Counted from the first letter of the stretch, positions 38,822-59,857 are shown. The stretch is 64,000 nucleotides of DNA from an uncultured Actinomycetes bacterium (GCA_963765295.1 CAVXVO010000004.1:349059-413058); one strand, 5' to 3'. Notes: a model not told the origin generated them from the sequence alone. Numbers and translations are program-made.

Positions 38822-38826
38822 TAGCG

Positions 38827-42251: not shown

Positions 42252-42286
42252 CCTCGCCTCAGCGAGCACAAGGAGGCAGGGAACCC

Positions 42287-42616: not shown

Positions 42617-42754
42617 GGCTCGAAACCCGACCCCCTGCGTCGCTCACCGTCGCGGCCGACTTGTACCCCGGAAGCGGCCCGGCGAGGGAGATCGTGGCCG
42701 CGCCTCCGACGCGATGAACCTCGGCCCGTCCGCTTTCGCGGCCAACATGGAGCA

Positions 42755-43534: not shown

Positions 43535-43846
43535 CGCGCGACCGACCCGACGGCGCAGGCGGACGCCCGCTGAAACCTCACACGATGTGAGACTTGGCGA
43601 GCCCGGGCTCAGCCCGTGAGCGGCTCTCTGACGTCGATCCGGCCCGGGACGACGATCACCCCACTTCCGCCTCGCAGGGCTTCCACTGTGCTCGTGGCGG
43701 GTTGTAACAGGCTCGTCGCTAAGCCGGGCCCCTCGCCCTACTACGCCCTCGCGCCGACGAGCATCACGAGCGGCGGCGAGGTGTAGGCGTCGTGGCTGTG
43801 TCGTCCGCGAGTCGGAGCCCAGCCTGGCGCGTGTCACCATTCCTGG

Positions 43847-44830
43847 ATGGGGCGGACGCCATGGGAGATTCTGACCGAGGCCGATGAGCACCTCCGCGAA
43901 CCGAGGCTGTCTGGTGTCGAGTCTTGGCGCATGACACCGGGGACGGTCTTGCAACGGTGGTCGTCTCTGAGCGAGCTGGACAGGCCGCGCTACCTGACGT
44001 TCGAGCAGCGGATGGGCCGCTTCCCGGATGCGGTCAGAACCTGGCCGGTGGAATGGCAGGGCAACCTGATTCTGGTGGCGCTGCGCCACCGGCACCTTCT
44101 CGACCAGGAGAAGCTGGCTCGAACGCTCGGTGTCGAGCCATGGGAGATCAAGCCCGCCCTGCCAGTGCGAGTGCGGATGAAGCTCGGGTTCGAGCCGGGC
44201 TTCGAGACGCTCGTGACCGACGAGCAAGTAGCCCGATTCATCGACGTTCGAGTGACCCGGATGCGCGGCGCGACCATCGCCACCGGCACTTCCTACGCCA
44301 CCGCCACCGTCATCCCCGACGCCCTGATCGCACTGACGCGCGCGGCCGTCGGTGACTTCGCGACCGAGCCACTGCCTCTCGACCACCCGCTCGGCCTCTA
44401 CCAGTCGTATCTCCGTCAGACGCCCGCCGTGGTCAAGACTGTGCTTGAAGACGTTTCGAACCGGGTCAACTTCCCGATCTGGGCTCCAGCCGACCTGCTA
44501 GCCGGAGGCGATGTGTTCCATCTCGACGGCGCTGACTGGTCATCAGCACTGGGCTCACCCGCCAGCGAACTCGACCGGATCACTCTCACACTCTCGATGC
44601 AGCCCGGCCACTGGACGACCTACCTCGACCAGTCGCCGAGCCCCGCACACAACAAGCAGGCACGACAGGAGTGGCCGCGATACACCACACCCGGAGCCGA
44701 TAAACCCTGGATGACAAACGTGCTCCAGGTCGAGCGCGAGGGCGTCGGGATCACGATCGTCGCGCACGAACGCTTCCCCGAATCCCTGCAACCGATCGCG
44801 GACTCGCTCGTCCCGTTCGCAGCCGGGTAG
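43847..44830 (+). CDS. hypothetical protein (island A)
   Basis: 327-aa ORF with non-repetitive, protein-like composition. No motif was recognised. Confidence 0.5.
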   Translation: MGRTPWEILTEADEHLREPRLSGVESWRMTPGTVLQRWSSLSELDRPRYLTFEQRMGRFPDAVRTWPVEWQGNLILVALRHRHLLDQEKLARTLGVEPWEIKPALPVRVRMKLGFEPGFETLVTDEQVARFIDVRVTRMRGATIATGTSYATATVIPDALIALTRAAVGDFATEPLPLDHPLGLYQSYLRQTPAVVKTVLEDVSNRVNFPIWAPADLLAGGDVFHLDGADWSSALGSPASELDRITLTLSMQPGHWTTYLDQSPSPAHNKQARQEWPRYTTPGADKPWMTNVLQVEREGVGITIVAHERFPESLQPIADSLVPFAAG

Positions 44831-45180
44831 CGGCCCCTCCGACTTCAACCGGCCCCCGGTCAAGTTAGACGTATCGAGCCGCAGCAGCGGCACGGAAAGG
44901 TACTGACGGCCACCCGCATCGACAAGCCGACACTTTCCTCGCACAGCACACCCGCACCGTCCCAGCAGTGAGGGCCGCTCGTGGCGGTGCGGGCTCCTTA
45001 CCCCACAGAACCGCCTGACCCTGGCCGCCCCGGGGCCAGGCGCGTTTCGCCAAGCCTCCTAGTAGTAGGCCGAGCCCGAGCCGGGCCACCCGCCCTCGAC
45101 GCCCGACTACGCCTCGGCGAAGACGACCATCACGTACGGCGCCGACGCCGTCACCTCGATCGGCGCCGCCAGACAGGTGC

Positions 45181-45423
45181 TTACGCCATGGCGGTTCCGA
45201 CCGCCTCGATCGGCTTTGACCCCGAGGAAACCTCCTTCACCTTCCGACCCCGCCGTGCCTGCTTGCGGCCCTTACGGGCAAGCTCCTCAGCTTCTTCAAC
45301 CGTGACATCGAGGACAAACTGGCCCTTACGGGAGTCCGCGAACGTGACTGTCACGGTCGCGCTATTGCCTTCCTCGATGACGTCGCCCGAGAGGTCTGAA
45401 ACGATCACGGTTCGTCTTGCCAC
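45181..45423 (-). CDS. small basic protein resembling the Lsr2 N-terminal (oligomerisation) domain
   Basis: GTG at 45423 follows AAAGGAG. VARRTVIVSDLSGDVIEEGNSATVTVTFADSRKGQFVLDVTVEEAEELARKG parallels the Lsr2 N-terminal pattern. An Arg/Lys-rich linker follows. No obvious C-terminal AT-hook domain is present. Confidence 0.45.
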   Translation of the reverse strand: MARRTVIVSDLSGDVIEEGNSATVTVTFADSRKGQFVLDVTVEEAEELARKGRKQARRGRKVKEVSSGSKPIEAVGTAMA

Positions 45424-45565
45424 GTCCGCTCCTTTCGCCGAGAGGGGACGAAACCTAGCCAAGCCAACGCGCGACAGAACCACTTCACGGTGGGCCCGGG
45501 ATCGGCCGACTCCGAGTGCGTGGGCGATGAAGTGCGAGTTGAGTCCGGTCGGAACCGGGGTAGGC

Positions 45566-45784
45566 CTAGATCGAGTCCCGCTCGCGCGAGCTTGCGGCGG
45601 GTACCGACGGCGGCGTGGTGTCGTCGTCGATCGCGTCGGCGTGGTGGACGATGCCGTCCTTCAACTCGCGGATGCCCTTGCCGAGAGAGCGTCCCATCTC
45701 GGGGAGACGCTTCGGCCCGAAGACGAGGAGTACGACAAGCGCGAAGATCGCGATGTGCCAGGGGCTGATCAGTCCCGATCCCAT
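45566..45784 (-). CDS. tatA: twin-arginine translocase subunit TatA/E
   Basis: 72 aa. MGSGLISPWHIAIFALVVLLVFGPKRLPEMGRSLGKGIRELK is the canonical TatA TM helix plus amphipathic helix. Confidence 0.9.
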   Translation of the reverse strand: MGSGLISPWHIAIFALVVLLVFGPKRLPEMGRSLGKGIRELKDGIVHHADAIDDDTTPPSVPAASSRERDSI

Positions 45785-46009
45785 CGCGAGTGAGGCTAGC
45801 AGCCGGGCCTCGCGCTCTGATGCGCGCTCGCGTCGTTGAGACCAGGCACGGCCCGATCGGGGGCGATCTCGCCTCGATCAGGCCGAGGATGAGGGTTTGC
45901 TGCCTCGCGTCGACGCGTCTCACTCTCGCCTCATCTGGGATCGTGACCCTCGGTCGCCACTCAGGATGGATAGGAGTGACGACCAGCCTCGGGTTGAGAC
46001 GCGGTCGCG

Positions 46010-47638
46010 TTGTGGTCAGACGGGTCGCGTGTGACCAGCGAGCGGGCGCCAGGTGCAGCCGCGTGGCTGGTGGCGGCGTTCGGCTGGCTGGAGCGGCTGG
46101 CCGGTAGCTGGCGAGGGGCAGTTGCGCTGTTTGCTGTCGCGCTTGCTGATTTCGTTGTGCAGGCGGTCGCGTGGCCGTTGATCGCCGGGAAGAACCTCGA
46201 TCAGTATCTGCTGACGTACGTTCAGTTGTTCGATCGGCACCCGTTGTTGCCGTGGGCGCCGCTGTTTCGCGGCCCGGGAGCAGGCGTCGTGATCGGGCCG
46301 TTGCTCAGCCTCGACCGCGGCGGGTTGGCGGAGCCGGTGGCGGCGGTGCTGTTCGCGGTGTCGATCGTCGCCTGGAGCGGCGCGGCCCTGTGGTTCGGAC
46401 GCCGTGCCGCGATCCTGACCGCGTTCGCGCTGCTCTTGTATCCGGGGTACGGCGGTCTGTTTCACGAGTTCGCGAGCGAGATCGTGATGGCGACCGTGTT
46501 CTCCCTGTGGGCGCTCGCGGTCACGAGAGCGGCGATGCGGCCGTCCGTCGCCCGGTTCGCGCTCGCCGGGCTCGGGATCGCCGGGCTCGTGCTGATCCGG
46601 CCGGGCAACGCCGTCCTCGTGCCGTTCGCTCTGTTCCCGCTTCTACTCGCCGGACAGCGGAGACGGCGGCTGACGTGGGCCGCTGCGTTCGCGGCCGCGG
46701 CTTGCCTGCCCCTGGCCGCCTGGACGCTTCAGAACGGCTGGCGCTACGGCGACTACACGCTCGCCCGAGGGGGAAACGCTGTCATCCCCTTCTACCGCAC
46801 CTTCGTGCTCGACAAGACCGTCTCACCCGCCAACGGCCCCGCCTCACGCCGACTCGCCGCAGCCATCCAGCAACACCTACTCACACACAACCCCTACAAG
46901 GCGAACCACGTCACCCTGCAACAAGTGCTCGCGTCCGGTAGCAGCCGTGTCCACGAAGACCTGTACGTCCTTTCCGACCAGGTCTTCGGCTGGAACAGCG
47001 CCTACTCAACCCTCCGCGACGCAGGCTGGGAAGCGATCAAGGCACACCCGGGCACCTACGCCTCCAGCGTCGCCGACACGGTCTGGCAGCAACTCTCAAG
47101 CCCCGTCTACTCCACCCGCTCCCAGCACACACCCACGACTCCCACCGGCAACGATGGCCGCGTCCCCGCACCGAGCAAAGGCGAGTTGATCCCAGTCGGG
47201 CAGACGGCCTGGATATCCCGACCCGATCAGAGCATCCGCGAACTCTGGACATCCCCGACCACCCACGAGTTCGTCTTCCTCAAACCCGGCCAGAAACCAC
47301 GCTTCAACCAGATCACCCACGACCTCACGACACTCGCCGGCAACTTCCCCCACCGCGCCGGAAGCACCGAAGTCCAGCATCGGTTGAACCAGATCGCCCA
47401 TCGCTACCCGCCACCGATCTTCTGGCTCCTAGTCGGGCTGGCTGCCCTCCTGATTCGACGCCCGCTCGGAACAAAGACCGTCGCCATGCTTACGACCGCC
47501 GCCCTGACGGTGATCGCCTTCAACGCACTCGCCCAGACCGCGGAGCCGAGGTACATGCTCCCCGTCGCACCCGCCTTCATCCTCCTCGCAGCCGCCGCAC
47601 TCCTCGGCCACACGCGACCGTCTGATCCGACAGACTGA
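46010..47638 (+). CDS. GT-C fold membrane glycosyltransferase (GT39/ArnT-PMT-like)
   Basis: 542 aa with about 9 N-terminal TM helices, a large soluble loop or domain, and a C-terminal TM helix. The family is assigned by architecture only, and the start is uncertain. Confidence 0.55.
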   Translation: MWSDGSRVTSERAPGAAAWLVAAFGWLERLAGSWRGAVALFAVALADFVVQAVAWPLIAGKNLDQYLLTYVQLFDRHPLLPWAPLFRGPGAGVVIGPLLSLDRGGLAEPVAAVLFAVSIVAWSGAALWFGRRAAILTAFALLLYPGYGGLFHEFASEIVMATVFSLWALAVTRAAMRPSVARFALAGLGIAGLVLIRPGNAVLVPFALFPLLLAGQRRRRLTWAAAFAAAACLPLAAWTLQNGWRYGDYTLARGGNAVIPFYRTFVLDKTVSPANGPASRRLAAAIQQHLLTHNPYKANHVTLQQVLASGSSRVHEDLYVLSDQVFGWNSAYSTLRDAGWEAIKAHPGTYASSVADTVWQQLSSPVYSTRSQHTPTTPTGNDGRVPAPSKGELIPVGQTAWISRPDQSIRELWTSPTTHEFVFLKPGQKPRFNQITHDLTTLAGNFPHRAGSTEVQHRLNQIAHRYPPPIFWLLVGLAALLIRRPLGTKTVAMLTTAALTVIAFNALAQTAEPRYMLPVAPAFILLAAAALLGHTRPSDPTD

Positions 47639-47676
47639 CCACATGTCCACGACCGCGGCGCGAAGCGGCCGCGAAC

Positions 47677-48771
47677 ATGAAGGGCCCTGACCGGCTCTGG
47701 GCAGGCGAACACGACGAGCGCCACTGGCGATGGGCGCCGCTCGGCGTCGGCACGTTGGCGTTCGCCCTCGGGCTAGTCAGCCTCACAGGTCAGCGACGCT
47801 CCTACGACGAGCGAATCACGATCGAGACCTCGGCCCGCTCGGTAAGCGGTATCTGGCACGCGGCACGGACGACCGAGGCACCGCACCTCGTCTACTACCT
47901 ACTGATGAAGCCCTGGCTCGCTGCCTTCGGGTCGAGCGACTGGGTTGCACGCTTCCCCTCCATCGTATTCGGGGCACTAGCAGCGACGCTGCTGACGGCA
48001 CTCGGTATCCGCCTGTTCGGAGGCCTCGCCGGTCTGGTTGCCGGGGCGGCCTTGGCGACAGCCCCGTACGTGATGCACTTCTCGCAATGGGCGCGCGGCT
48101 ACTCGCTGGCGCTCCTCCTGACCGTGCTCGCCAGCTACGCCTACGCACGCGCCCACGACGACCCACGGGGACGATGGGTGGCGCTCTGGGCGGTCGCGCT
48201 CGTCGCCGCCTGCTGGGTCAACCTGTTCGCGATCTCCGTCCTCGCCGCACAGGTGACCGCTTACCTGGTCATGCGGCCGCGCCCACGGCCCCGTCTCGCC
48301 ACTGCCGCCCTCCTCGCAGTCAGCGCGGCCGTGACACCGATCATCATCCTCGTCGCGACCGCAGACAACGGCCAACTCAACTGGATTCCCACACCCACCA
48401 TCCACCGCGTCGCCGTACAAACCTGGGACTGGTCGAGCCGAAACCCCGTCGCGCTCGTGGCGGCAGCGATCGGCGTCGTCGCACTGCTGGTCGGAACCCG
48501 GCGCCCCCCGCGCTGGAAAGCACTCCTCGTCATCGGCTGGACGATCGCTCCCTTCCTGCTCACCCTCGCCCTGTCGATCGTGCAACCCGCCTTCGACTCC
48601 CACTACCTCCTAACCGCAGCCGCCGGACTCGCACTCCTCATCGGAGCAGGCATCGCCGCCCTCCCACAACGGGCATCCCTGATCCTGCTCGCCCTCGTCG
48701 CCGCAGGCGCCGGACTGCAACTCGCCCACTACTACATCGCACCCGGACGCCCCTTCACATCGCTGTTCTGA
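47677..48771 (+). CDS. GT-C fold membrane glycosyl/mannosyltransferase (GT39/PMT_2-like)
   Basis: 364 aa. YDERITIETS...APHLVYYLLMKPWLAAFGSSDWVARFPSIVFGALA matches the conserved first-loop pattern of PMT_2-type transferases. The protein is polytopic. Confidence 0.65.
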   Translation: MKGPDRLWAGEHDERHWRWAPLGVGTLAFALGLVSLTGQRRSYDERITIETSARSVSGIWHAARTTEAPHLVYYLLMKPWLAAFGSSDWVARFPSIVFGALAATLLTALGIRLFGGLAGLVAGAALATAPYVMHFSQWARGYSLALLLTVLASYAYARAHDDPRGRWVALWAVALVAACWVNLFAISVLAAQVTAYLVMRPRPRPRLATAALLAVSAAVTPIIILVATADNGQLNWIPTPTIHRVAVQTWDWSSRNPVALVAAAIGVVALLVGTRRPPRWKALLVIGWTIAPFLLTLALSIVQPAFDSHYLLTAAAGLALLIGAGIAALPQRASLILLALVAAGAGLQLAHYYIAPGRPFTSLF

Positions 48772-49149
48772 CCCGCAGCATCGAGTTGGCTTAGCCGTTC
48801 TCCTTGCGGTCGCGGTGGGAGGCGCGCCAGAAGAACCAGCCGACAACGCCGAGAATCACCAGCGGGACGACGATCGAGGCGACGATGATCCCCGCCGTCG
48901 CGGCCGCCTCGGACACCCTGAAGACCAGCACCGAACAGGGAGGTTATGCTCGACCCGTGGGCCCGGGCTTGCGGCTTGACGAGATTTCGCTGCTGCACGG
49001 CGTGCTGCCCTGGAAGATCGACGCGACACGACCGAGGATCGTGAATCGTCCCAGAGTCGCGCTCGCCCTCGTGGCGAATCATGTTGGCCGCGGCCGCGTC
49101 ACGGTGCAAATCCTGAAGCCGACACATCCGACCGCGGCAGCGACTGTTG

Positions 49150-50061
49150 CTAGAGCTTCGTCGCCCAGTACTCAGTGGGCTGTTCGAGATCGATGCAATA
49201 GAGGGTCTGCTCCTCCCCGAGCGTGATGCCGGGGAAGCGCACCGGCCAGCAGAGGTCGCGGAAGACATGGAACGTGACGAGGACTCCGTCGCCGTCCGTC
49301 CTCGCGCGGAGGAGGTGCGTGGGTTCGACGATCCTGGTGCCGTGTCGGTTCGCGGCGCAGTACGCATCGGCGGGTTCGGTTTCGCCTTTCATCGCCGCCT
49401 GGAGCGCCTCACGCACGGGGTCGAGCGCGACCTCGTAGACGTTGTCGCCGAGGCAGAGCGCGAGGTACAGGTAGGCGATGCCGACCGGAACGTGGAGCGG
49501 GGTGATCGGGTCGGTGAGGGCCGGTGCGAACTTCGCGTCAGTCCAGTCGATCTGCCACTGGATGCGGTAGCCGGGTCGGACGTCGATCCAGTCACCGGGC
49601 TCGGCCCTCTCGAAGCGGGCCAGGAGGTCTGCCTTCTGCTCGTCGGATGCGCCCATCCGGTCTAGCTCGGCGAGCGCCTGCTTGATCGTGTTCTCGTCGC
49701 TCTTGATTCTCGCCGACTCCTTTGGCCGTAGCTCCGCCCGGTCGTCCATCCCCGCCTCGACTCGGCCGTACTCCTGGTGGTCGGTGAAGTAGCTCTGCTG
49801 GTAGCGAACACTGGTCACAATGCCTCGCGGGAGTCGGTCTTCGAGCTTGTCCACGAGCAGGCGCACCGAGATGTCTCGTGCGAGCAGCCCCTCCGAGGCG
49901 CCCATGTCGCTGTTGCACCGCTTGCAGACGTTGAACGCCGAGAGCCTGCCGCCGATCGACTGCGGAATGACGTGTCCGTCGGTGCGCTGTGTCATCGGCT
50001 CGCCGTCCTCGGGCGTTCCGAGGCAGACAACGCAGCGCGTGTCGAGCCAGGGCACCTTCAC
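49150..50061 (-). CDS. HNH-endonuclease-motif protein with about 230-aa uncharacterised C-terminal domain
   Basis: I chose GTG at 50061. CVVCLG...DGHVIPQSIGG...NVCKRCNSDMG gives a CxxC...H...N...CxxC HNH-type zinc-finger layout. It is the last gene before DR2. Confidence 0.6.
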   Translation of the reverse strand: MKVPWLDTRCVVCLGTPEDGEPMTQRTDGHVIPQSIGGRLSAFNVCKRCNSDMGASEGLLARDISVRLLVDKLEDRLPRGIVTSVRYQQSYFTDHQEYGRVEAGMDDRAELRPKESARIKSDENTIKQALAELDRMGASDEQKADLLARFERAEPGDWIDVRPGYRIQWQIDWTDAKFAPALTDPITPLHVPVGIAYLYLALCLGDNVYEVALDPVREALQAAMKGETEPADAYCAANRHGTRIVEPTHLLRARTDGDGVLVTFHVFRDLCWPVRFPGITLGEEQTLYCIDLEQPTEYWATKL

Positions 50062-50136
50062 GGCACCGAGAGTACGGAACCGATCAGAACCGGCGGCGGC
50101 GACCGAGCGACAGCTACACGACTCGGCTGTTCGCCG

Positions 50137-50158
50137 TGTCAGCGCGATGTCAGCACGG
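50137..50158 (+). repeat. arm-type-site-like motif, right copy (TGTCAGCGCgATGTCAGCAcGG)
   Basis: It lies 101 bp inside DR2, in the same orientation as the left copy at 38903-38924. Confidence 0.6.
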
Positions 50159-50258
50159 ACGCGTCTTGCGCCGTCCATACCCGTCGCTCGGAAGCGCCAG
50201 GATTCGAGAATCCACGGTGGCCGCGGGACGTCGTGTCCAGCCGTGTCGCAGCACTGTT

Positions 50259-50307
50259 CGGCCTGTCACGCCGGAGGTCGCGGGTTCGAGTCCCGTCGCT
50301 CCCGTCC
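50259..50307 (+). repeat. direct repeat copy 2 (attR of island A / attL of island B)
   Basis: 49/49 identical to 38773-38821. It is followed by its own terminator hairpin AAGACGCTG-gaaa-CAGCGTCTT plus TTTCTTT (50311-50339). Confidence 0.95.
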
Positions 50308-50457
50308 CGAAAGACGCTGGAAACAGCGTCTTTTCTTTGCTTCCAGGCGCCGCGTCCTTCACGCGGATCCGCCAGGGAGGCGCCGCCGTGGAACCACGTG
50401 GAGCGCCTTCCGGGCAGAGCGACCGATCCGTCCCAACGTCCTATCACCGTCGCCGGA

Positions 50458-50961
50458 TCAGACGTTCCCCGGCTCCTGCTCGCTGCGGGCTCGCGCGATG
50501 ATCGCGGTCGTCGAGAGGGGGTTGCCGGCAGCGTCGGCGCTCGTGTACGGAACCGTGGCGAAGATCCCGAGCCGGACCGCCGCGCCGTAGTAGTGGGCGA
50601 TCTCGTTCTCCTCGAAATCGTCGCCGTGGACGACGAGGTCGAGCTCGTGCTGCTCGATGAAAGGGTCGTCGACGATCAGCGGGCAATCGGGCACGACGAG
50701 GTCGACGTACCTGCAGGCGCCGACCACGGCCACCCGTTCGGCGAGCGGGACGATGGGACGCCGCTTGTACGCGGCCGCCGCGTCGTCGCCGAGCAGCCCG
50801 ACGAGCAGCCGCACGTGCGAATCGGCCTCCTCGAGCGGGACGCCGTCTCGGTCGGCAGCGCGTTCGCAGGCCAGCACGCGCACCTGGCGGAGGAAGTTGA
50901 CGTGGCCGCCGTGGAAGAGGTCACCGACCATGTCCGCGTACGCGTTGAAAGCCCGGGTCAC
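50458..50961 (-). CDS. PCYT-like cytidylyltransferase (choline/ethanolamine-phosphate cytidylyltransferase-type, CTP_transf_like)
   Basis: 167 aa with the HxGH motif (DLFHGGHVNF), an RYVD motif (ACRYVDLVV) and a C-terminal ...STTAIIARA motif. These are as in CCT/ECT-type enzymes rather than TagD. Confidence 0.75.
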   Translation of the reverse strand: MTRAFNAYADMVGDLFHGGHVNFLRQVRVLACERAADRDGVPLEEADSHVRLLVGLLGDDAAAAYKRRPIVPLAERVAVVGACRYVDLVVPDCPLIVDDPFIEQHELDLVVHGDDFEENEIAHYYGAAVRLGIFATVPYTSADAAGNPLSTTAIIARARSEQEPGNV

Positions 50962-50963
50962 GG

Positions 50964-51719
50964 TTGTATAGTCGCCCGGATCGTGCCCAGCTGCCGGCGG
51001 ACCGTCGCACGGTGACCACCTCGCCCTGGGACGATGTCTGGCAGAGGCGGACGTTCGACTACTCCCGTGGCTCGCTCCTGTCGGCGCTGATGGCGGCGGA
51101 CGGATTCGGCACGGGGTTCGGCAAGGTCGACGAAGAGAACTGGGCCGGCTATGTCCGGACTATCGCCGGGCGGCTGCGCATCGCGCCGGGCTCGAGCGTC
51201 CTCGAGGTCGGCTGCGGAGCCGGCGCCTTCCTCTATGAGCTCTACCGACAGGGGTGCACCGTCTCGGGGATCGACCGGTCGCCCAAATTGATCGAGTACG
51301 CGCGGCAGGCAATGCCGGAGGGGCGCTTCGACGTCGCCGACGCCTCCGAGCTCGACCCGGGCGAGCCGGTCGACGCCGTCGTGTCGTTCGGCGTCTTCCT
51401 CTACTTCCCCTCGCTGGCCTACGCTCGCCGTGTCCTTGAGCGCATGGCCGTCTCCGCACGGCACGTCGTCGCTGTCCTCGACCTGCCGGATCGCGCCAGG
51501 CGGGCCGAGGACCTGGCCCGCCGTCAGGAGCTCGCCGGTGGCGCCGAGGCCTACGAAGAGTTCTACCGCGGGCTCACGCATCTCTACTTCGACCGGACCT
51601 GGTTCACCCGGACGCTCGACCGGTGCGGCCTGGCCGACGTGGAGGTCGCCGACCAGGAGCTCGTCGGCTACTCGCACGCCCCGTTCCGGTTCAACGCCTG
51701 GGGTTTCGCCCGAGACTGA
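50964..51719 (+). CDS. class I SAM-dependent methyltransferase
   Basis: It has motif I VLEVGCGAGAF and motif II DAVVSFGVFLYF. The start is either TTG at 50964 or, more plausibly, GTG at 51012. Confidence 0.8.
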   Translation: MYSRPDRAQLPADRRTVTTSPWDDVWQRRTFDYSRGSLLSALMAADGFGTGFGKVDEENWAGYVRTIAGRLRIAPGSSVLEVGCGAGAFLYELYRQGCTVSGIDRSPKLIEYARQAMPEGRFDVADASELDPGEPVDAVVSFGVFLYFPSLAYARRVLERMAVSARHVVAVLDLPDRARRAEDLARRQELAGGAEAYEEFYRGLTHLYFDRTWFTRTLDRCGLADVEVADQELVGYSHAPFRFNAWGFARD

Positions 51720-53096
51720 TCAGGTCTGGGCGATCGCCTGCACGACCGGCTCGGGCGGGAGCAGCTCGCTGCCTCTCTTCACCGAGATCCAGAACAGCAC
51801 TCGGTCCTCGTCCCCCTGGTTCGCAACGCCCCGGTGGATCGTTCCGAAGTCCATCTTCAGGATGCTGAACGGCGGCCCCAGCAACTGCCGAACGCTGACC
51901 CAGTCCCCCTCGCGCGCAAGCAGGCGGAGATCGACGGCGTCGAGGTCCTTGGTCGCGCGACGGTAGACCTCCTCGGAGGTGCGGAGCGGGAGAATCGCGT
52001 ACTGCAGCGCGTTCTCCGGCCGCAACTCGGTGAGGGGGATGAAGATCGTGCCGTAGTCCATCGTGTAGTCGACGTGCCAGTCCTGCGCCGTCGATCCGAC
52101 CGGATTGACGATCAGGCCGTAGCCGTCGAGGTGGACGCCCGGGCCGTAGTGCCGGGCCATCTGACGAGCCCAGGCGTCGAGCTCCTCCCCACGCTCCACC
52201 GGAAGCCTGTCACCGTCGCCCGACCGCTGCCAGATGTTGACCCAGAACACCGCCTGCCGCGCCATGCTCCCGCTCCACTCGTCGGCCATCAGCCGCTCCA
52301 CATCGCGCCAGGCGCCGGCCAGGAGCTCCTGCTGGGGGACGGCCACCGTTCCCAGGTGCGTCATGCCCGCCGGTGAGTCGTCGTAGGGCACCGGCGTGCG
52401 AGGCGCCTCGCGCCATTCCTCGAGGATGAACGCGACGTACGCGAGCTCGCACCACGCGTACAGGACGGCCGGCGCCAGCAATCCCCACTCGAGGACGTGG
52501 AGGATCGTCGTGACGGACCCGGGCTGCCCCGACCAGGCCAGGTCGACACACCAGGCGAGCGCGACGACCGGGTAGGCGAGCCACAGAAACGAGCCGAACG
52601 CCGTGTACGACCCGCCCGGCATGCACCACTGGAGGATCACGCGGAAACCGCGCTGCGGCCCCAGCCGCGGGTACCGCCCGGTCGCGGTCGTGGCGAAGTC
52701 GAAGACGCAGGCGACGAGCTCGATCGTTGTGACGGCCAGGATCAGCGGCGCCCAGGTGGGCGAGAGCCTGACGAACCAGGACAGGATGACGACGTAGGCC
52801 AGGACGTCGGCCAGCCAGTCCACGCCCGAGCCGAACACCGTGCACTCGCGATACGCGCGGGCCACGGGGCCGTCGACCCAGTCGAGCAGGATCGAGGCCA
52901 GCAGCAGCCCCGCCGTCAGCAGCGGATGTGCGGTGGTGATCGTGGCGCCTGCCGCCAGGCAGAGAGCGACCCGCGCGTAACCGATCAGGTTCGACCGGTA
53001 GTACCGGATCTCCGCGAAGCGGGTGGACGGGCCGCCCGGCGCAGGCGACGGCACCCACTCGCCGCCTTCGAAGATCAGCACTCCCGCCGGGCGCAC
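51720..53096 (-). CDS. CDP-alcohol phosphatidyltransferase fused to a C-terminal HxD...H (PhyH/2OG-oxygenase-like) domain
   Basis: 458 aa. The complete CDP-OH signature DWVDGPVARAYRECTVFGSGVDWLAD (D-x2-DG-x2-AR-x8-G-x3-D-x3-D) lies in a 6-TM N-terminal half. The C-terminal about 220 aa are soluble, with WHVDY ... GTIHRGVAN. Confidence 0.7.
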   Translation of the reverse strand: MRPAGVLIFEGGEWVPSPAPGGPSTRFAEIRYYRSNLIGYARVALCLAAGATITTAHPLLTAGLLLASILLDWVDGPVARAYRECTVFGSGVDWLADVLAYVVILSWFVRLSPTWAPLILAVTTIELVACVFDFATTATGRYPRLGPQRGFRVILQWCMPGGSYTAFGSFLWLAYPVVALAWCVDLAWSGQPGSVTTILHVLEWGLLAPAVLYAWCELAYVAFILEEWREAPRTPVPYDDSPAGMTHLGTVAVPQQELLAGAWRDVERLMADEWSGSMARQAVFWVNIWQRSGDGDRLPVERGEELDAWARQMARHYGPGVHLDGYGLIVNPVGSTAQDWHVDYTMDYGTIFIPLTELRPENALQYAILPLRTSEEVYRRATKDLDAVDLRLLAREGDWVSVRQLLGPPFSILKMDFGTIHRGVANQGDEDRVLFWISVKRGSELLPPEPVVQAIAQT

Positions 53097-53128
53097 GTCG
53101 CGACTATAAGGCTGCCAGGCTCGACGCG

Positions 53129-54373
53129 GTGCGTCAGTATCCCCCGATGCACCCGCGCGAACGTAGGTCGACCAGGCGGCGGTTCGTGGTCGCGTCGGCC
53201 GGTGCGATCGCCGCGCTGCGAGCCGGCCTATCGGTCGCCGCAGCCGCAGGCGTGCCGCTCGGACCCGGCGGCATCCCGCTCGCTAGGCGCGATCATCCCG
53301 TGACGCTGCCGATCTACCCGGACAACGAGCCGATCGACTCCGTCAAGAGCCCAGAGCGGGGGCCGCTCCAGGTCTTCACCTGGAGCGCCTACATCAACCC
53401 GACCGTCGTGAAGGCGTTCGAGAAGCAGTACAAGGTCGGAGTCACCGTCACGAGCTTCGAGAACGAGGAGGAGGCGCTCGCGAAGCTGTCGAGTGGGGCC
53501 GTGCACTTCGACGTCTGGTTCGGGACCGTGCAGTACCTCGGCAAGTCCGTCGCAGGCAAGCTGATCCAGCCTCTCAACCATCACTACCTGCCGAACCTGC
53601 GCGCGAACATCTGGCCGTCGCTCGTCAGCCCCTACTACGACGTCGGCTCCCGCTACACCATCCCGTACGTCGTCTACACGACGGGCATCTCGTGGCGACG
53701 CGACAAGGTCAGGGCCCCGACGACCTTCGCGAACCCTTACGACATTCTCTGGGGGACGCCTAGGAGCGCGGGCAAGGTCGCCGTGATCGACGATCTGCGG
53801 GAGGCACTCGGGATGACGCTGCTTCGGCGTCACGTCGCAAACGTGAACACGGAGAGCCCCGCTCTCGTCGGACGGGCCGGCGCCGATCTCTCCGAGCTGA
53901 CGAAGCGTCTGAACGTCAAGGTCAACCAGACCGACTACCAGGACATCCCCTCGGGAGCGACCTGGATCGCCCAGGCCTACTCGGGAGACATGGCGACCTC
54001 CGCGTACTACATGCCGAAGGGCGTGCCGGTGAGCGTGGTCGGCTTCTGGCGGCCGCAGCGGGGCGGGATGATCGGCAACGACGTGATCACGGTGCTGCGC
54101 GGCTCGAAGCGGCCGGTCCTGGCACACCACTTCCTGAACTTCCTGCTCGACCGAGGTCACGCGCTCGAGAACTTCGGCTTCCTCGGCTACGTGCCGCCGC
54201 AGAAGAGCCTCGACCCCGCGTCGCTGATCGCGAAGGGGTACGTGCCGAAGAACCTGGCGTCCACGATCGTCCGGGAGGAGGAGTTCCGGCACGACCACAC
54301 GCTGCTGCCGCTGACGACGGCCGGCGAGATTCTCTGGCAGAACGCCTGGTCGAAGTTCAAGGCCGGCGGCTAG
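53129..54373 (+). CDS. PotD/PotF-family ABC substrate-binding protein with Tat-type signal
   Basis: 414 aa with a twin-arginine leader (RRSTRRRFVVASAGAIAAL). Family-typical motifs are VFTWSAYINP and YVVYTTGISWRRDKV. The ligand cannot be inferred. Confidence 0.8.
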   Translation: MRQYPPMHPRERRSTRRRFVVASAGAIAALRAGLSVAAAAGVPLGPGGIPLARRDHPVTLPIYPDNEPIDSVKSPERGPLQVFTWSAYINPTVVKAFEKQYKVGVTVTSFENEEEALAKLSSGAVHFDVWFGTVQYLGKSVAGKLIQPLNHHYLPNLRANIWPSLVSPYYDVGSRYTIPYVVYTTGISWRRDKVRAPTTFANPYDILWGTPRSAGKVAVIDDLREALGMTLLRRHVANVNTESPALVGRAGADLSELTKRLNVKVNQTDYQDIPSGATWIAQAYSGDMATSAYYMPKGVPVSVVGFWRPQRGGMIGNDVITVLRGSKRPVLAHHFLNFLLDRGHALENFGFLGYVPPQKSLDPASLIAKGYVPKNLASTIVREEEFRHDHTLLPLTTAGEILWQNAWSKFKAGG

Positions 54374-54392: not shown

Positions 54393-55292
54393 GTGATGGG
54401 GCGGCACCGGTTCCTCTGGCCCCTGTTCGCTTTCCCGGGAACGGTCTGGCTCGTCCTGTTCTTCCTGATCCCGTTCTACGCCGTCCTGTCGGTGGCGTTC
54501 GGCACAGTCGATCCGATCTTCCAGGGCCCGGTGCCCGTCTGGAACCCCCTGGACTGGCAATTCGAGACGATGCGCTCGGTCCTCGACCAGCTCCGGCCCG
54601 GGGAGGTCTTCTGGACGGTCTTCGTCCGCACGTTCGCCTATGTGGCGGTCGCACTCGCCGGCTGCCTCGCGATCGGCTATCCCGTGGCGTACTACCTCGC
54701 CCGTCATGCCGGGCGGACGAAGGTGCTGCTGCTCGTGCTGCTGATCATCCCGTTCTGGGTCAGCTACCTGATGCGGATGCTGGCCTGGATCGGGTTGCTC
54801 CTGCCCGACGGGCTCGTCAACCGCACGCTCGTCGACCTCGGCATCCTCAGCCACCCGTACGGCTGGCTCGACGGGCAGCCGTCGTCCGTGATCTTCGCGC
54901 TCGTCTACGGCTACGTGCCCTACCTGATCCTGCCGCTGTTCGCTGTCCTCGATCGGATCGAGCCGCACCTGATCGAGGCCGGCCTTGATCTGGGCGCGAG
55001 CCGTTTCGCCACATTCCTCCACGTCACGCTGCCGCTCAGCAAGCAGGGCATTCTCGCCGGCTGCGTCCTGATCGCCCTGCCGATGTTCGGCGACTACTAC
55101 ACGAACGACGTCATCTCGGGCTCGCCGGGCACGTCGATGATCGGCAACCAGATCAACCTCTTCTTCCAGGGTGGCCCTCAGCGCACGACAGGTGCGGCGC
55201 TCGTCATCGTCCTGGCCCTGCTGCTCGCCGGGCTGATGTCCTACTACCTGATCTCGACCGCGCGCGCGTCGCGCCGGCCGGCGGTGGCATGA
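54393..55292 (+). CDS. ABC importer permease (PotB-like)
   Basis: 299 aa with 6 TM helices and an EAA-type loop (LIEAGLDLGASRFATFLHVTLP). Confidence 0.85.
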   Translation: MMGRHRFLWPLFAFPGTVWLVLFFLIPFYAVLSVAFGTVDPIFQGPVPVWNPLDWQFETMRSVLDQLRPGEVFWTVFVRTFAYVAVALAGCLAIGYPVAYYLARHAGRTKVLLLVLLIIPFWVSYLMRMLAWIGLLLPDGLVNRTLVDLGILSHPYGWLDGQPSSVIFALVYGYVPYLILPLFAVLDRIEPHLIEAGLDLGASRFATFLHVTLPLSKQGILAGCVLIALPMFGDYYTNDVISGSPGTSMIGNQINLFFQGGPQRTTGAALVIVLALLLAGLMSYYLISTARASRRPAVA

Positions 55293-56164
55293 AGCGCGTC
55301 CGCGAGTGGTGGTCGAATCCGTGGGGGCGGCCGCGCTTCCTCGTCGCGTTCACCTGGCTCTACATCGCCTGGTCGATCGTCCCGATCGCGATCGCCATCC
55401 TGTTCTCGTTCAACGCGGGCAAGTCCCGGAGCGTCTGGCAGGGCTTCTCGACGCGCTGGTACTGGGGCCCTCAATCCGTCCTCCACGACCCGACGCTGCG
55501 AGGGGCGCTCGAGCAGAGCCTCAAGCTGGCCGTGGTGGACATGGCGATCGCGGTTCCGCTCGGCGTGGCGCTCGCACTCGGGCTCACGCGCTGGCGGGGT
55601 TACGGCTCACGGCCCGCGAACCTGCTGATGCTGTTCCCGCTCGTCATGCCCGAGATCGTGATGGCGGTGTCGCTGCTGCTCGTCTTCACGACGCTGTACC
55701 GGTTCGAGCTCGGCACGACGGCGCAGGTGCTCGGGCAAGTGACGTTCTCGGTCTCGTTCGTCGTGGTGGTCGTACGCGGCAGGCTCCTCTCGATCGGGAG
55801 GGAGTACGAGGAGGCCGCGGCCGACCTCGGCGCCTCGCCGGCCGCCGCGCTGCGGCTCGTCCTGCTGCCGCTGCTCTTGCCGGCGATCCTCGCCAGCTTC
55901 GTGGTCGTGTTCGCGCTCTCGATCGACGACTTCGTGGTCACGGACTACCTCTCGTCCGACGCCTCCACCCAGACGGTGCCGATCCAGATCTACTCGAGCG
56001 TCCGCGGCACGAGCACGCCTGCGCTCAACGCCGTGGCGACGCTGATGGTCGTGGCGACGCTGCTCGCGTTCGCGCTGGTGTTCGTCCTCCACCGGCGCTA
56101 CTCGGGCCGCCAGGACGCAGGCGGCAGCTCGTCCCTGCGGGAGATCGCGGCCTTCGATGTCTGA
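55289..56164 (+). CDS. ABC importer permease (PotC-like)
   Basis: 291 aa with the loop [23 protein letters not shown]. It overlaps its neighbours by 4 and 8 nt. Confidence 0.85.
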
Positions 56165-57282
56165 CACGCCTGTCGAGGCTCGCCCCACGCTCAAGGGCGG
56201 CGCCGTCGAGCTCGTCGACCTGCGCAAGCGGTTCGGCGATGTGGACGCGGTCGACGGGATCAGCCTGCAGATCCCCGCGGGCGAGTTCTTCTCGCTGCTC
56301 GGCCCGTCCGGCTGCGGCAAGACGACGACGCTGCGCCTGATCGCCGGGTTCGAGCGGCCCGACGGCGGCCGGATCTCGCTCGACGGCGTCGACATGGCCG
56401 CGACGCCGCCTCACCGCCGCAGGGTGAACACGGTCTTTCAGAGCTATGCGCTCTTTCCCGCACCTGTCCGTGTTCGACAACGTGGCGTTCGGCCTCCGGC
56501 GACGGCGGACGCCGCGGGCCGAGATCGACCGACGCGTCGGCGCCATCCTCGAGGCCGTACGGCTCGAAGGGCTGGAGAAGCGCCGGCCCTCGCAGCTTTC
56601 AGGCGGCCAGCAGCAACGGGTTGCGCTGGCGCGAGCGCTCGTGCTCGAGCCGTCCGTGCTGCTGCTCGACGAGCCGCTCGGCGCACTCGATGCGAAGCTG
56701 CGCAAAGCTCTCCAGCTCGAGCTGAAGACGATTCACGAGGAGTTCGGGATCACCTTCGTCTACGTCACGCACGACCAGGAAGAGGCACTGACGATGTCCA
56801 ACCGGATCGCGGTCATGTCCGCCGGGCGCGTCGAGCAGGTCGCGACGCCCGAGGAGATCTACGAGGAGCCGGCGACCGTGTTCGTCGCGGACTTCCTCGG
56901 CGTCTCGAACCTGATGACGGCGACGGCGGAAGGCACGGACGACGGCCGCTGTGTGCTGCGGCTCGGGGAGTCGGTGCTGCACGCGTCACGCGGCGAGACC
57001 TCGGCGCGCGGCAAGGTGAGGATCGTGATCCGCCCGGAGCGGGTGCAGGTCGAGCCGTACGCGCCGGGAGGCGAGAACCGGATCCCGGGGATGGTCGAGC
57101 GGGTCGTCTACCTCGGCTCGCTGGACCAGCTCGTGATTCGACTAGCGACGGGCGACGTGCTCCAGGCCGTTCTCGTGAACGACGGCGGGCCGAAGGCGTT
57201 CGCCCAGGGCGTGCCGGTACGAGTGCATCTGCCGGCCGAGGCGTTGCTGGTGCTCCCCGAGCGGCCGGGCGTCGCGCCGTGA
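56157..57282 (+). pseudogene. PotA-like ABC importer ATPase; +1 frameshift at about 56460
   Basis: Walker A (GPSGCGKTT) and the Q-loop start ([10 protein letters not shown]) are in the 56157 frame. [31 protein letters not shown] and the H-loop are in the 56446 frame. An extra G in tttcccGcacctg separates the two frames. Confidence 0.85.
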
Positions 57283-59492
57283 ACGTGAGCGACGTGAACG
57301 CGACGGAGGACCCGGGAATCCGGCAGTCGCTCCAGGCGCTCTGGCCCTACTTCCGCCCCTACCCGCGCCTGCTCGTGCTCATCGGTCTCGGCCTGCTCGT
57401 CGAAGCGGCGTTCAACGTCTTCCTGCCGCTGAGCTTCAGCATCCTGATCGACAAGGCGCTGATCCCGAAGGACAAGCAGGTGCTCGTGATCGTGCTCGTC
57501 GCGCTCGCTTTGGGCGTCGTGATCACGGGCGTGGTCGGCGTCGCCCGCGACCGGCTCTACGCGCGGCTGACGGCGAGCGTGATCGCCGACTTGCGGCTCG
57601 AGATCTTCGCCCATCTGCAGAAGCTCTCGCTCGGCTTCTACGCGCGCATGCAGCTCGGGGACATCCTGGCGCGGTTCTCCGGCGACCTGGTCGCGCTCGA
57701 GGGAGCGTTCGTCTCCGCCCTGGCCTGGGCGGTCGCACCGGCGCTCGACGTCTGCGTCTACACCGTGGTGCTGTTCATCCTCGACTGGCGGCTGGCGCTC
57801 CTGGCGATGCTCGTCTGGCCGATCGCGCTCCTCGGGCCCCGCTACTTCGCGCCCCGCGCAGTATCCGGAAGCTACGAGAAGAAGCGCCTCGAATCCCAGA
57901 CGCTGAGCGTCGTCCAGGAGAACATCTCCGGCCAGTCCGTCGTCAAGGCGTTCGGGCTCGAAGACGCGTGGCTCGCCAGCTTCGAGGACCGCAATGCCCG
58001 ACTGCGGCACAGCACGGCCCACGTCTCCTTCCTCAGCTCGCTGGTGGAGAGGAGTGCGTATTCGGGCGTCCTCGCACTCGACGTCGCGATCATCGGCGTC
58101 GGCTCCTGGCTCTCGTTCAACGGCTCGCTCTCGATCGGGAAGCTGGTCGCCTTCCAGGGCGTCTTCCTGGCGCTCGGCTACGGGCTCGCATACGTCACGC
58201 AGTACATGCCCGGTCTCGTGCAGGGGCTCGGGGGCTTTCGCCACATCTCGGAGCTCTTCGAGCAGGAACCGCAGGTCGTCGACGAGGCGGAGAGCGTGCC
58301 CCTGCCGCGGCTGCGCGACGAGATCCGCTTCGACAGCGTCACCTTCGGCTACTCCGAGCCCGACGCGAACCTACAGAACCTGAGCGTGAGGATCGCCGCC
58401 GGCGAGTCCGTCGCCTTCGTCGGTTCGAGCGGCTCGGGTAAGAGCACGGCGCTCAGCCTGGTGATGCGCTTCTACGACCCGTGGTCCGGCTCGGTGACGT
58501 TCGACGGCCACGACCTGCGGACGGTGACGTCCGCCTCGCTCCGCTCGCAGTTCGGCGTCGTCTTCCAGGAGAGCTTCCTGTTCAACACGTCGGTCCGCGA
58601 GAACATCCGCATGGGGAAGCCGGACGCGAGCGACGCCGAGGTCGAGGCTGCCGCGAGCGCGGCTGAGATCCACGAGTTCGTTCTCGGTCAACCGGAGGGC
58701 TACGACACGGTGGTCGGCGAGCGCGGCGGCATGCTCTCCGGAGGCCAGCGCCAGCGGCTCGCGATCGCGCGCGCGATTCTCCGGGATCCGGCGATCCTCG
58801 TGCTCGACGAGGCGACCTCGGCGCTCGATCCGGGCACGGAGGCCGCGATCAACGCGACGCTGGAGCGGGTCGCCAAGGGCCGGACGACGATCACCGTCAC
58901 GCACCGGCTCGCCATCGCCACGACCGCCGACCGGATCTTCGTGCTCGACCAGGGCCGGCTCGTCGAGAGCGGCCCCCACGAGGAGCTGGTCGCAGCCCAG
59001 GGCCTCTACCACGAGCTCTGGAAGCGGCAAAGCGGCTTCACGGTGGAGGCTGACGGCGACCGGGCCGTGGTCAGTCCCGAGCGGCTCGCGCAGGTACCGA
59101 TCCTGAGCGGCGTCGCGCCCGAGCTGCTCGCGCAGATCGCGGCGCTGTTCACGAGCGAGCAGTACCCGGCCAGGCGCGTCGTCGTCCAGGAAGGAGACCC
59201 CGGCGACCGCTTCTACCTCGTGGTCCGGGGGCGGTTGATCGCCACCCGGAAAGACGCGGACGGCAACGCCGTCCAGGTCAACGTCCACGAGGACGGCGAC
59301 CACTTCGGCGAGATCGCGTTGCTGCGCAAGGCGAACCGGCTGGCGACGGTGACGACCGAGACGCCGGCCCTGCTCCTCTCCCTCGCGCGCGAGCCCTTCC
59401 TCGAGCTAATCGAGAGCGCTCCTCACGTCCGGGAGTCGATGGATCGCATCATCGACGAGTACCTCGCAGCCTGGGCCGCGCGAGATCCCTAG
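57279..59492 (+). CDS. ABC exporter (TMD-NBD half transporter) with C-terminal cyclic-nucleotide-binding domain
   Basis: GTG at 57279 overlaps the PotA stop (GTGA). The 737-aa translation has a 6-TM exporter domain, Walker [18 protein letters not shown] and [16 protein letters not shown]-type cNMP domain follows ([19 protein letters not shown]). Confidence 0.85.
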
Positions 59493-59813: not shown

Positions 59814-59857
59814 CTGTCACGCCGGAGGTCGCGGGTTCGAGTCCCGTCGCTCCCGTC
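59814..59857 (+). repeat. direct repeat copy 3 (attR-like remnant of tRNA-Asp 3' end)
   Basis: 44/44 identical to 38778-38821. It is followed by hairpin AAAGGCGC-tgcctacg-GCGCCTTT plus T-run (59861-59890), which also abuts the stop of the convergent gene. Confidence 0.95.

Follow-up and report, generated by a model that had tools for sequence, protein, structure and literature searches.

A fused CDP-alcohol phosphotransferase/2-oxoglutarate oxygenase and its conserved partner genes in uncultured bacteria: a candidate CDP-aminoalcohol route to a tailored envelope product

We analyzed a 64,000-nucleotide stretch of DNA from an uncultured Actinomycetes bacterium (GCA_963765295.1 CAVXVO010000004.1:349059-413058; the window) and focused on positions 50458-53096, where genes for a cytidylyltransferase (CT), a class I S-adenosylmethionine (SAM) methyltransferase (MT) and a membrane CDP-alcohol phosphotransferase fused to an Fe(II)/2-oxoglutarate (2OG) dioxygenase are packed together (Table 1). 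We propose that these three genes supply the biosynthetic steps at the heart of a conserved module, in which a CDP-(N-methyl)aminoalcohol route leads to a tailored membrane or envelope product that is then exported, and we give this proposal about an even chance of being right. It starts from features that were observed directly, namely the domain identities, the intact catalytic motifs, the oxygenase fold, the conserved linkage, the replacement of the CT in sister loci and the fusions among the domains. An initial annotation of the region had suggested a Kennedy-type route, possibly acting on a phosphonate; the type of the CT and the co-occurrence of the functions lend the route partial support, but the phosphonate variant did not hold up. 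That annotation had missed the 2OG-oxygenase domain, an ABC exporter with a cyclic-nucleotide (cNMP)-binding domain and the SET-domain partners described below.

The -/+/- packing of the three genes, noted initially, was recovered to the nucleotide: the divergent starts of the CT and MT genes are 2 bp apart, and the convergent stops of the MT gene and the fused gene are 0 bp apart. Codon-position composition is of coding type in all three (GC content at third positions, GC3, 0.89-0.92 and at second positions, GC2, 0.42-0.50, in a window of 69% GC), and a Pfam scan matched each of the expected families, PF01467, PF01066 and methyltransferases. The same layout, with the MT gene antisense between transferase and CT, is found in two metagenome contigs (L029 and L030; 87-91% nucleotide identity, L030 compared with the window by blastn) and in part, as a divergent MT/CT pair, in L025 and L026. 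Given that it recurs in the independent contigs L029 and L030, the arrangement is no assembly accident. A promoter-like site, TTGAAA-16-TATAGT, with 10 of 12 matches to the sigma-70 consensus, overlaps the 5' end of the CT gene; it is the sole such site in 50100-53300, where 0.2 would be expected. Because this site also overlaps the TTG at 50964, the MT probably starts at the GTG at 51012 (235 aa).

The third gene had been described as a membrane enzyme with the full CDP-alcohol phosphotransferase signature. The signature is indeed complete (D72xxD75G76xxA79R80x8G89xxxD93xxxD97), and across 70 homologues each of D72, D75-G76, A79-R80, G89, D93 and D97 is either invariant or conserved to at least 90%; the protein is bifunctional, however, and its C-terminal ~220 residues form a separate oxygenase domain. 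The PF01066 match spans just residues 35-140. In the full-length AlphaFold2 model (predicted local distance difference test, pLDDT, 92), an N-terminal beta-hairpin is followed by six transmembrane (TM) helices (34-52, 58-81, 87-111, 113-137, 166-187 and 193-227) and then by the oxygenase, with the signature on TM2-TM3. Since the number of TM helices is even, the oxygenase is expected on the same face as the N-terminus, and by analogy with solved CDP-alcohol phosphotransferases this would be the cytoplasmic face, shared with the transferase active site. None of the characterized PF01066 subfamilies, which include PgsA, PssA, PIPS, Cls, the archaeal synthases and CPT/EPT, was matched: all NCBIfam matches scored 16-29 bits against cut-offs of 107-304 (the best, 29 against 180), and a profile of the transferase family reached PgsA, PssA and PIPS in the PDB with E values of 0.05-0.4. 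On these sub-cut-off scores, and with PDB E values of at least 0.05, assignment of the transferase as PgsA, PssA or PIP synthase was rejected. Foldseek matches to the full-length model were dominated by the oxygenase domain, which left the transferase structurally unplaced.

The oxygenase region (residues ~238-458) matched no Pfam family at E ≤1, PhyH and the other 2OG-oxygenase models included. All full-length homologues nevertheless keep this region, in which QxWHxDY, HRGxxN and RxxFWxS stand out as motifs. Its own AlphaFold2 model had a mean pLDDT of 93 and gave 503 Foldseek matches in the PDB at E ≤1e-3, with a top probability of 1.00; the best were PhyH-like Fe(II)/2OG dioxygenases (E ~1e-7, TM-scores 0.53-0.59), among them AviO1, EvdMO1, KanJ, PrhA/AndA, FtmOx1, proline hydroxylase and ThoJ. 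With these enzymes the model shares the double-stranded beta-helix and the HxD...H triad. Conservation of H341-x-D343, H421 and R432 is at least 90%, all of these residues are present in the window protein, and by alignment and model H341, D343 and H421 are the predicted iron triad and R432 the predicted 2OG-binding arginine. R432 lies 11 residues past the distal histidine, the spacing of H264 and R275 in PAHX. Since the aspartate of HxD is retained, an enzyme of hydroxylase type is expected and a halogenase was ruled out. When the oxygenase-domain profile was run exhaustively with HMMER against 1.84 billion representatives, 225 clusters were returned at E ≤1e-3, and the search did not spill over into large known families. 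Six of the ten long family members that were scanned are CDP-OH_P_transf fusions and four have no Pfam match; many other members stand alone at ~220-250 aa, and two are fused to SET domains. From profile and model, the domain is a new sequence family with a PhyH-like fold, set apart from known PhyH-like dioxygenases by its lack of Pfam membership, by the tiny size of the family and by fusion to a membrane transferase as its predominant context.

The surroundings of the fused gene were compared in 19 loci by Pfam annotation of contigs, tblastn of window proteins against the fetched loci and all-against-all clustering of open reading frames (ORFs). Just five families recur: the fused gene, the ABC exporter with the cNMP-binding domain, a family of MT and NTP_transferase-pyridoxal phosphate (PLP) proteins, SET proteins and the HxGH CT. 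The exporter is the most widely conserved neighbour (42-86% identity in ~14 loci of four phyla), and in NCBIfam it scores best with the MsbA-related and MsbA models, of the lipid flippase type. A class I MT is present in nearly all non-actinobacterial loci. The functions that the initial annotation had grouped together, CT, MT and transferase, thus recur across four bacterial phyla; that annotation had named a CT of glycerol-3-phosphate or ADP-heptose type, a transferase resembling PgsA or PIP synthase and a lack of co-occurrence as counting against it, and we found none of the three. Relative to L002 and L011, the block of fused gene and CT is inverted with respect to importer and exporter in the window, and L012 has yet another arrangement. 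We counted this persistence of linkage despite rearrangement in favour of a single module.

The activating enzyme itself is interchangeable. In Acidobacteriota, Verrucomicrobiota and other loci, the fused gene adjoins a ~600-aa protein in which a LicC-like NTP_transferase is joined to a CobD-like PLP domain; the small HxGH CT stands in for it in the actinobacterial clade. The nucleotidyltransferase half matches LicC best (1jyk), and the PLP half matches L-threonine-O-3-phosphate decarboxylase best (3fkd, E 1e-24; TIGR01140 161 bits, HisC 112). Judged by these matches, the CT and the NTP_transferase-PLP fusion are a case of non-orthologous replacement. The LicC-like, CobD-like and MT domains are found in a single 837-aa protein in L003 and L004. 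Together with the transferase-oxygenase and SET-oxygenase fusions, such NTP-PLP-MT fusions indicate that the parts are tied into one process.

SET-domain methyltransferases of 174-200 aa, marked by NHSC, ELxxDY and post-SET Cys motifs, are partners in nine loci, and SET and oxygenase domains are joined in single proteins twice (P0076 and P0079). Reduced verrucomicrobial loci (L023 6157-11298, L022 and L024) carry a stand-alone oxygenase, one to three SET genes and the exporter, with no transferase domain nearby. Oxygenase, SET protein and exporter can thus also form a trio that lacks the CDP-alcohol step.

The CT matches PF01467 (CTP_transf_like, E 2.8e-11) and carries FHGGH (aa 16-20), YKRRP, CRYVD (aa 83-87), VVHGDD (aa 110-115) and PYT...LSTT (LSTT at aa 149-152). 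H17, G19 and H20 of HxGH are invariant among 30 family members, and the conserved CRYVD and VVHGDD align with the equivalent motifs of CCT and ECT. As a single sequence it matched human ECT (E 3.5e-17), CCTs (~1e-10), the Fom1 CyTase (1e-7) and TarD (2e-3) in the PDB. A profile of the 30 members scored 102 bits with rat CCT, 97 with Plasmodium CCT (PfCCT) and 85 and 95 with the two human ECT domains, followed by the Fom1 CyTase (71), TagD (55), TarD (51) and an RfaE-like protein (31); the placement is a ranking of profile scores, not a tree. The family profile thus favours CCT and ECT, as the initial description of a PCYT-like enzyme had it, and a glycerol-3-phosphate or ADP-heptose type was ruled out by the TagD, TarD and RfaE-like scores. 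At the position aligned with the tryptophan of the CCT choline box, the window CT has leucine. Its identity with the CTs of L025 and L029 is 80-85%, and with those beside full-length fused genes (L002 and L010-L013) 52-57%; an exact look-up found no gene on record with an identical product.

The identification of the second gene as a class I SAM methyltransferase was confirmed by Methyltransf_25/23/11/31/12, all above cut-offs (class I models, E 6e-14 to 9e-11; Methyltransf_25/23/11, E 6e-14 to 7e-12), and by the SAM-binding motif I (ExGxGxG; LEVGCGAG). It is 79-84% identical to the L025 and L029 copies and 34-41% identical to MTs that adjoin or are fused with pathway genes in L001, L003, L005, L006, L008, L014, L016 and L017. 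A spurious antisense ORF was ruled out by the GC3 of 0.89, the Pfam E value of 6e-14 and the 41% identity to a neighbour of the fused gene in another phylum. Membership of PEAMT or PmtA was not reached (best NCBIfam score 45 bits against a cut-off of 180), and the PEAMT structures 5wp4 and 5wp5 were matched at E 1e-4 only, over the Rossmann core.

In the route that we infer, the phospho-base, the stage of methylation, the acceptor, the oxygenase substrate and the role of the importer would be as follows. First, the CT would join CTP and a phospho-aminoalcohol of phosphoethanolamine or phosphocholine type to give a CDP-aminoalcohol. The class I MT, or SET proteins elsewhere, would N-methylate the soluble head group, either as the phospho-base or as the CDP-conjugate. 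The six-helix transferase domain would then pass the phospho-aminoalcohol to a membrane-associated hydroxyl, most simply that of diacylglycerol or another lipid alcohol, and the fused cytoplasmic dioxygenase would hydroxylate the head group or product, or else create the acceptor hydroxyl. Finally, the MsbA-like exporter, putatively gated by a cyclic nucleotide, would flip or export the product, and the importer of the window would possibly supply or salvage a cationic amine.

CDP-aminoalcohol head-group synthesis is regarded as essentially eukaryotic, apart from a few host-associated bacteria that scavenge choline. The superfamily of every catalytic domain is already known, and the core logic is Kennedy-like: as in the Kennedy pathway (PCYT1/PCYT2 and CHPT1/CEPT1), an HxGH CT, here closest to ECT and CCT, precedes a PF01066 transferase in which the signature is complete. 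Unlike that pathway, the locus has no choline or ethanolamine kinase, its RTEGISTT motif is altered and its transferase is not specifically CPT/EPT-like; it adds a fused 2OG oxygenase, a dedicated ABC exporter and one or more methyltransferases. The sister loci recall the route from serine via PEAMT to phosphocholine in plants, Plasmodium and nematodes, in that they encode a decarboxylase, an N-methyltransferase and a cytidylyltransferase, once as one 837-aa polypeptide, which implies methylation of the phospho-base before transfer. The differences are that a phospho-amino acid, and not free serine, would be the substrate of their CobD-like decarboxylase, that the MT is no PEAMT orthologue and that the window lacks a decarboxylase. 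Treponema denticola has a CDP-choline pathway of LicCA and a choline phosphotransferase, and LicC and LicD serve phosphocholine decoration elsewhere. The present system resembles these in its cytidylyl-activated, choline-type head group and in the LicC-like enzymes that replace the CT in sister loci, whereas in T. denticola the LicC-type CT is fused to a kinase, external choline is scavenged, and there is no methyltransferase, oxygenase or dedicated exporter. Fusion of a PF01066 enzyme to a soluble domain of the same pathway has a parallel in IPCT/DIPPS, whose partner domain is a nucleotidyltransferase instead of a 2OG oxygenase and whose product is a soluble osmolyte. New here are the joining of transferase and oxygenase in one protein, the sequence family of the latter, the existence of two interchangeable activating enzymes, a dedicated and putatively cNMP-gated exporter, the association with SET proteins and the restriction to uncultured lineages plus eukaryotes.

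A phospho-base could be available without a kinase in some lineages. Judging from its best matches, the CobD-like domain of the sister loci would convert phosphoserine or phosphothreonine to phosphoethanolamine or 1-amino-2-propanol phosphate; a CobD homologue reportedly acts as a serine-phosphate decarboxylase in norcobamide synthesis. Given that this decarboxylase is fused to the nucleotidyltransferase, the missing kinase would be accounted for in the sister-locus phyla. The module has two interchangeable activating enzymes and appears to be self-contained.

The fusion is rare and taxonomically scattered, and the gene set, which is uncharacterized, is confined to uncultured soil bacteria plus some rotifers and protists. 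A search of 5.8 billion proteins returned 92 relatives of the fused protein, and transferase and oxygenase are fused in ~70 homologues. With 18 full-length bacterial members as the query set, 15 loci were found among 185,579 prokaryotic species (one genome each), all in metagenome-assembled genomes, from uncultured Actinomycetes (73-85% identical to the window), Terriglobia, Acidobacteriia, Bryobacteraceae, Turneriella and Verrucomicrobiota; the module is thus patchy over Actinomycetota, Acidobacteriota, Verrucomicrobiota and Spirochaetota. Outside the bacteria, full-length fusions are present in two bdelloid rotifers, Rotaria sordida and R. magnacalcarata (P0060, P0062 and P0364-P0368), on contigs of up to 686 kb, and in protist transcriptomes from EukProt (P0059, P0068, P0087 and P0088), at 29-44% identity to the window protein. 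These copies probably arose by inter-domain horizontal transfer, which would be a clear case of such transfer of membrane chemistry. Full-text literature searches found no description of the fusion or of the gene cluster, and as far as we are aware the fusion would be the first instance of a CDP-alcohol phosphotransferase coupled to oxidative tailoring.

A further-reaching version, which we put forward tentatively and regard as rather doubtful, is that oxygenase and transferase work as one machine: the oxygenase would make the acceptor hydroxyl or hydroxylate a quaternary-ammonium head group, the substrate having been N-methylated by class I or SET methyltransferases, and the transferase would cap this substrate with a phospho-aminoalcohol derived from CDP. 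The outcome would be a new class of oxygenated and methylated phospho-aminoalcohol compounds, either lipids or envelope molecules, exported under cNMP control. Among bacteria, uncultured inhabitants of soil and peat would be the only makers, and bdelloid rotifers and protists would have received the genes by horizontal transfer. A lipid product would represent a new head-group class for soil and peat lipidomes and a new source of biomarkers.

Several observations weigh against the proposed CDP-aminoalcohol route. In the CT family the canonical RTEGISTT is altered to a consensus VPYTxG-ISTT, with tyrosine for arginine, and the window CT reads YTSADAAGNPLSTT at this position, with a 6-residue insert; the altered motif resembles the degenerate motif of ECT domain 2. 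Membership of the CT family does not fix the substrate either, because in Candidatus Microthrix (L027/L028 5315-6516) a member with 48% identity lies divergent beside a plain 210-220-aa CDP-alcohol phosphotransferase, near glycosyltransferases, an inositol-monophosphatase-family gene, an oxidoreductase, an aminotransferase and a carbamoyltransferase; this pairing is a different, likewise uncharacterized system. The transferase profile found nothing in the PDB that points specifically to CPT/EPT or to another solved member. No kinase, CobD-like decarboxylase or PEP mutase that could provide the phospho-base was found among the scanned predicted ORFs of the window, which agrees with the initial remark that a head-group kinase is missing, and neither a kinase nor a PEP mutase is conserved across the 19 loci. 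The importer ATPase carries a one-base insertion (an extra G at 56460) relative to the 88%-identical L002 gene, which is intact at 12951-14042; this reflects a pseudogene or else a mistake of the assembly, in a homopolymer. In addition, no cultured organism with the fused gene was found among the 185,579 species genomes.

Two further points of this kind concern genes that close relatives lack. The oxygenase domain is cleanly deleted in the closest relatives, by 686 bp corresponding to window 51712-52397, with the transferase >90% identical. The five other members of the window protein's 90%-identity cluster are all such short forms of 243-258 aa, and oxygenase-less forms (L029 1105-1881, L030 10001-10732, proteins P0045 and P0359-P0362) come from several independent samples. 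The L029 and L030 loci keep the antisense MT and the CT. The clean deletion indicates that the oxygenase is a tailoring or auxiliary domain that the transferase does not need. The MT, for its part, was not found by tblastn in the closest full-length actinobacterial relatives (L002 and L010-L013), so that methylation is either not obligatory or performed by SET proteins (L012 and L025). To these relatives the CT is 52-57% identical, in contrast to 83-86% for the fused gene, the binding protein and the exporter, and the pair of CT and MT, common to L025, L029 and L030, looks like a swapped-in allele.

The acceptor could also be something other than a lipid, with a CDP-activated N-methyl aminoalcohol passed to a glycan, a lipoglycan or a protein, or built into a soluble phosphodiester, before ABC export; we consider this unlikely but give it real weight. 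The known CDP-alcohol phosphotransferases are all membrane proteins even when their substrates are soluble, as in DIPPS, so membrane location is compatible with such an acceptor. Beside the CT of L030 (11968-18721) lie two class III nucleotide cyclases, a Polysacc_synt (Wzx-like) flippase and a LicD-family gene, the last two 2 kb from the CT. LicD enzymes use CDP-choline as the donor of phosphocholine, and the LicD neighbour fits a CDP-choline-like product of CT and MT, in line with our main proposal as well; together these neighbours suggest that the CDP-activated head group is put to a second use, directed at glycans, and the cyclases, which echo the cNMP-binding domain of the exporter, suggest control by a cyclic nucleotide. 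A bacterial precedent is the Clostridioides difficile FtaABCD system, a CDP-threonine pathway via CDP-N-methylthreonine (bioRxiv 10.64898/2026.02.12.704994), an operon of cytidylyltransferase, SAM N-methyltransferase and phosphotransferase in which methylation takes place on the CDP-conjugate. Its acceptor, unlike the one we favour, is N-acetylglucosamine on flagellin, and it has neither oxygenase nor exporter. The island next to the window cluster carries two PMT_2 glycosyltransferases, and the exporter scores well with glucan, HepA and type I secretion models too; its best models are nevertheless of MsbA type, no glycosyltransferase is conserved across the 19 loci, and the rotifer and protist homologues sit more naturally in lipid metabolism. 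The FtaABCD phosphotransferase probably belongs to a family other than PF01066.

The importer beside the fused gene bears on the substrate. Its permeases are syntenic in L002, L011 and L012, the binding protein is 86% identical in L002 and L011 and 73% in L012, and linkage to the cluster is limited to the actinobacterial clade. A 4-bp overlap between the stop of the importer ATPase gene and the start of the exporter gene makes co-transcription of the two systems probable. The binding protein had been related to those for 2-aminoethylphosphonate (AEP); it matches polyamine binders of PotF/PotD type only, and keeps residues aligned with E185, D247, D278, W37 and Y40 of PotF. Given that E185, D247 and D278 are the acidic amine-ligating residues, these matches argue for a cationic amine as the probable ligand and not for an anionic phosphonate. 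Two unrelated loci have polyamine-metabolism genes within 5-8 kb of the cluster: L001 (1-3657) carries two spermine-synthase-like genes, an AdoMet decarboxylase, an amine oxidase and an OGFOD2-like oxygenase, and L030 (97-2485) carries an arginase, a pyruvoyl arginine decarboxylase and a deoxyhypusine-synthase-like gene. The polyamine genes and the PotD-like importer may link the module to polyamine-like amines.

These results leave the phosphonate idea very improbable. According to it, the CT would activate AEP taken up by the PotD-like importer, and an N-methylated phosphonolipid would result. AEP importers do fall in the PotD superfamily, and the absence of a kinase would suit a substrate that already carries phosphorus. 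HxGH-class cytidylyltransferases act on phosphonates, the Fom1 CyTase reached 71 bits with the CT profile, and 24% of Ppm enzymes carry a fused PF01467 domain (PMC6697681). CCT and ECT outscore Fom1 in that profile, however; no PEP mutase (Ppm), phosphonopyruvate decarboxylase (Ppd) or AEP transaminase was found among the scanned ORFs of the window, and none is conserved in the 19 loci. The sister loci use a CobD-like phospho-amino-acid decarboxylase instead of an AEP transaminase, the class V PLP domain of Tde1415 was not matched, and the binding protein, as described above, is of polyamine type.

A different donor would change the order of events. If CDP-diacylglycerol (CDP-DAG) were used, as by PgsA, Pcs and PssA, the transferase would place a phosphatidyl group on an imported amine that had been hydroxylated by the oxygenase and N-methylated, and the CT would serve another purpose. 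The transferase-oxygenase and SET-oxygenase fusions would fit an oxygenase that makes the alcohol substrate, and the polyamine-type importer and the polyamine genes near the cluster in L001 and L030 would fit the amine. The weak NCBIfam and PDB matches of the transferase are likewise to CDP-DAG-using enzymes, but all these scores are far under the family cut-offs. A nucleotidyltransferase of either type is moreover the constant companion of the fused gene, once fused with the MT, and would be left unexplained by a CDP-DAG donor, which we therefore regard as improbable.

Table 1. Features of the window (positions counted from its first nucleotide)
Feature	Position	Strand	Remark
CT gene	50458-50961	-	ORF of 167 aa
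Class I SAM MT gene	50964-51719	+	Longest ORF, 251 aa
Fused CDP-alcohol phosphotransferase/oxygenase gene	51720-53096	-	ORF of 458 aa
CDP-alcohol phosphotransferase domain (aa 1-228)	52413-53096	-	PF01066, E 1.1e-11
Fe(II)/2OG dioxygenase domain (aa ~238-458)	51723-52385	-	Predicted from AlphaFold2 model and Foldseek
Putative sigma-70-like MT promoter	50945-50972	+	Overlaps 5' end (first codons) of CT gene
PotD/PotF-like substrate-binding protein	53129-54373	+	Pfam, NCBIfam and PDB matches; twin-arginine-type signal read by eye
Two ABC importer permeases (BPD_transp_1)	54393-55292, 55289-56164	+	Pfam; syntenic in L002, L011, L012
PotA-like importer ATPase with TOBE domain, frameshifted	56157-57282	+	Pfam; comparison with L002
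MsbA-like ABC exporter (TM domain, ATPase, C-terminal cNMP-binding domain)	57279-59492	+	tblastn, NCBIfam
tRNA-Asp	38744-38821		3' half repeated twice downstream
Tyrosine integrase	38905-39819	-	Abuts tRNA-Asp
tRNA-Asp 3'-half direct repeat, copy 2 (att-like)	50263-50311	+	44-49 nt identical to 38777-38821
Hairpin and T-run, terminator-like	50309-50334		After repeat copy 2
tRNA-Asp 3'-half direct repeat, copy 3	59814-59857	+	Followed by hairpin and T-run

The cluster lies in a tRNA-Asp-associated variable region, which is the safest statement of its setting. An integrase gene at the tRNA-Asp gene and the second copy of its 3' half mark 38822-50306 as an integrated element, whose right end, repeat copy 2, is 150 bp from the CT stop; this island contains genes without assignment, a tRNA_edit-like gene, the two PMT_2 glycosyltransferases and an HNH_5 protein. 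What lies between repeats 2 and 3 is precisely the segment from CT, MT and transferase to importer and exporter. That segment 50307-59857 is itself a complete mobile element was not established: it has no integrase, and its GC3 is host-like. L030 lacks the repeats, and its cluster is ~8 kb away from one intact tRNA-Asp gene beside the same MTHFR gene. Such a setting, between fragment repeats and adjoining an integrated element, together with an antisense MT that the nearest full-length relatives lack, might raise the thought that three unrelated genes came to lie side by side by chance. We find this hardly credible, considering that the same functions, some of them joined in single proteins, surround the fused gene in each of four phyla and that the exact arrangement is seen again in L029 and L030.

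Outside the third repeat (59888-62859, minus strand) are genes for a PPDK_N protein with a C-terminal cNMP-binding domain and for a PEP-utilizers mobile-domain protein; the former is a second cyclic-nucleotide-binding enzyme beside the cNMP-gated exporter. Elsewhere in the window, membrane-lipid-related genes on the minus strand (11683-12348 and 17208-21828) encode a protein of the Sap (sulfolipid-1-addressing protein) family and a 797-aa LPG_synthase_TM (MprF-like) protein, the latter with an adjacent 747-aa ORF without a Pfam match.

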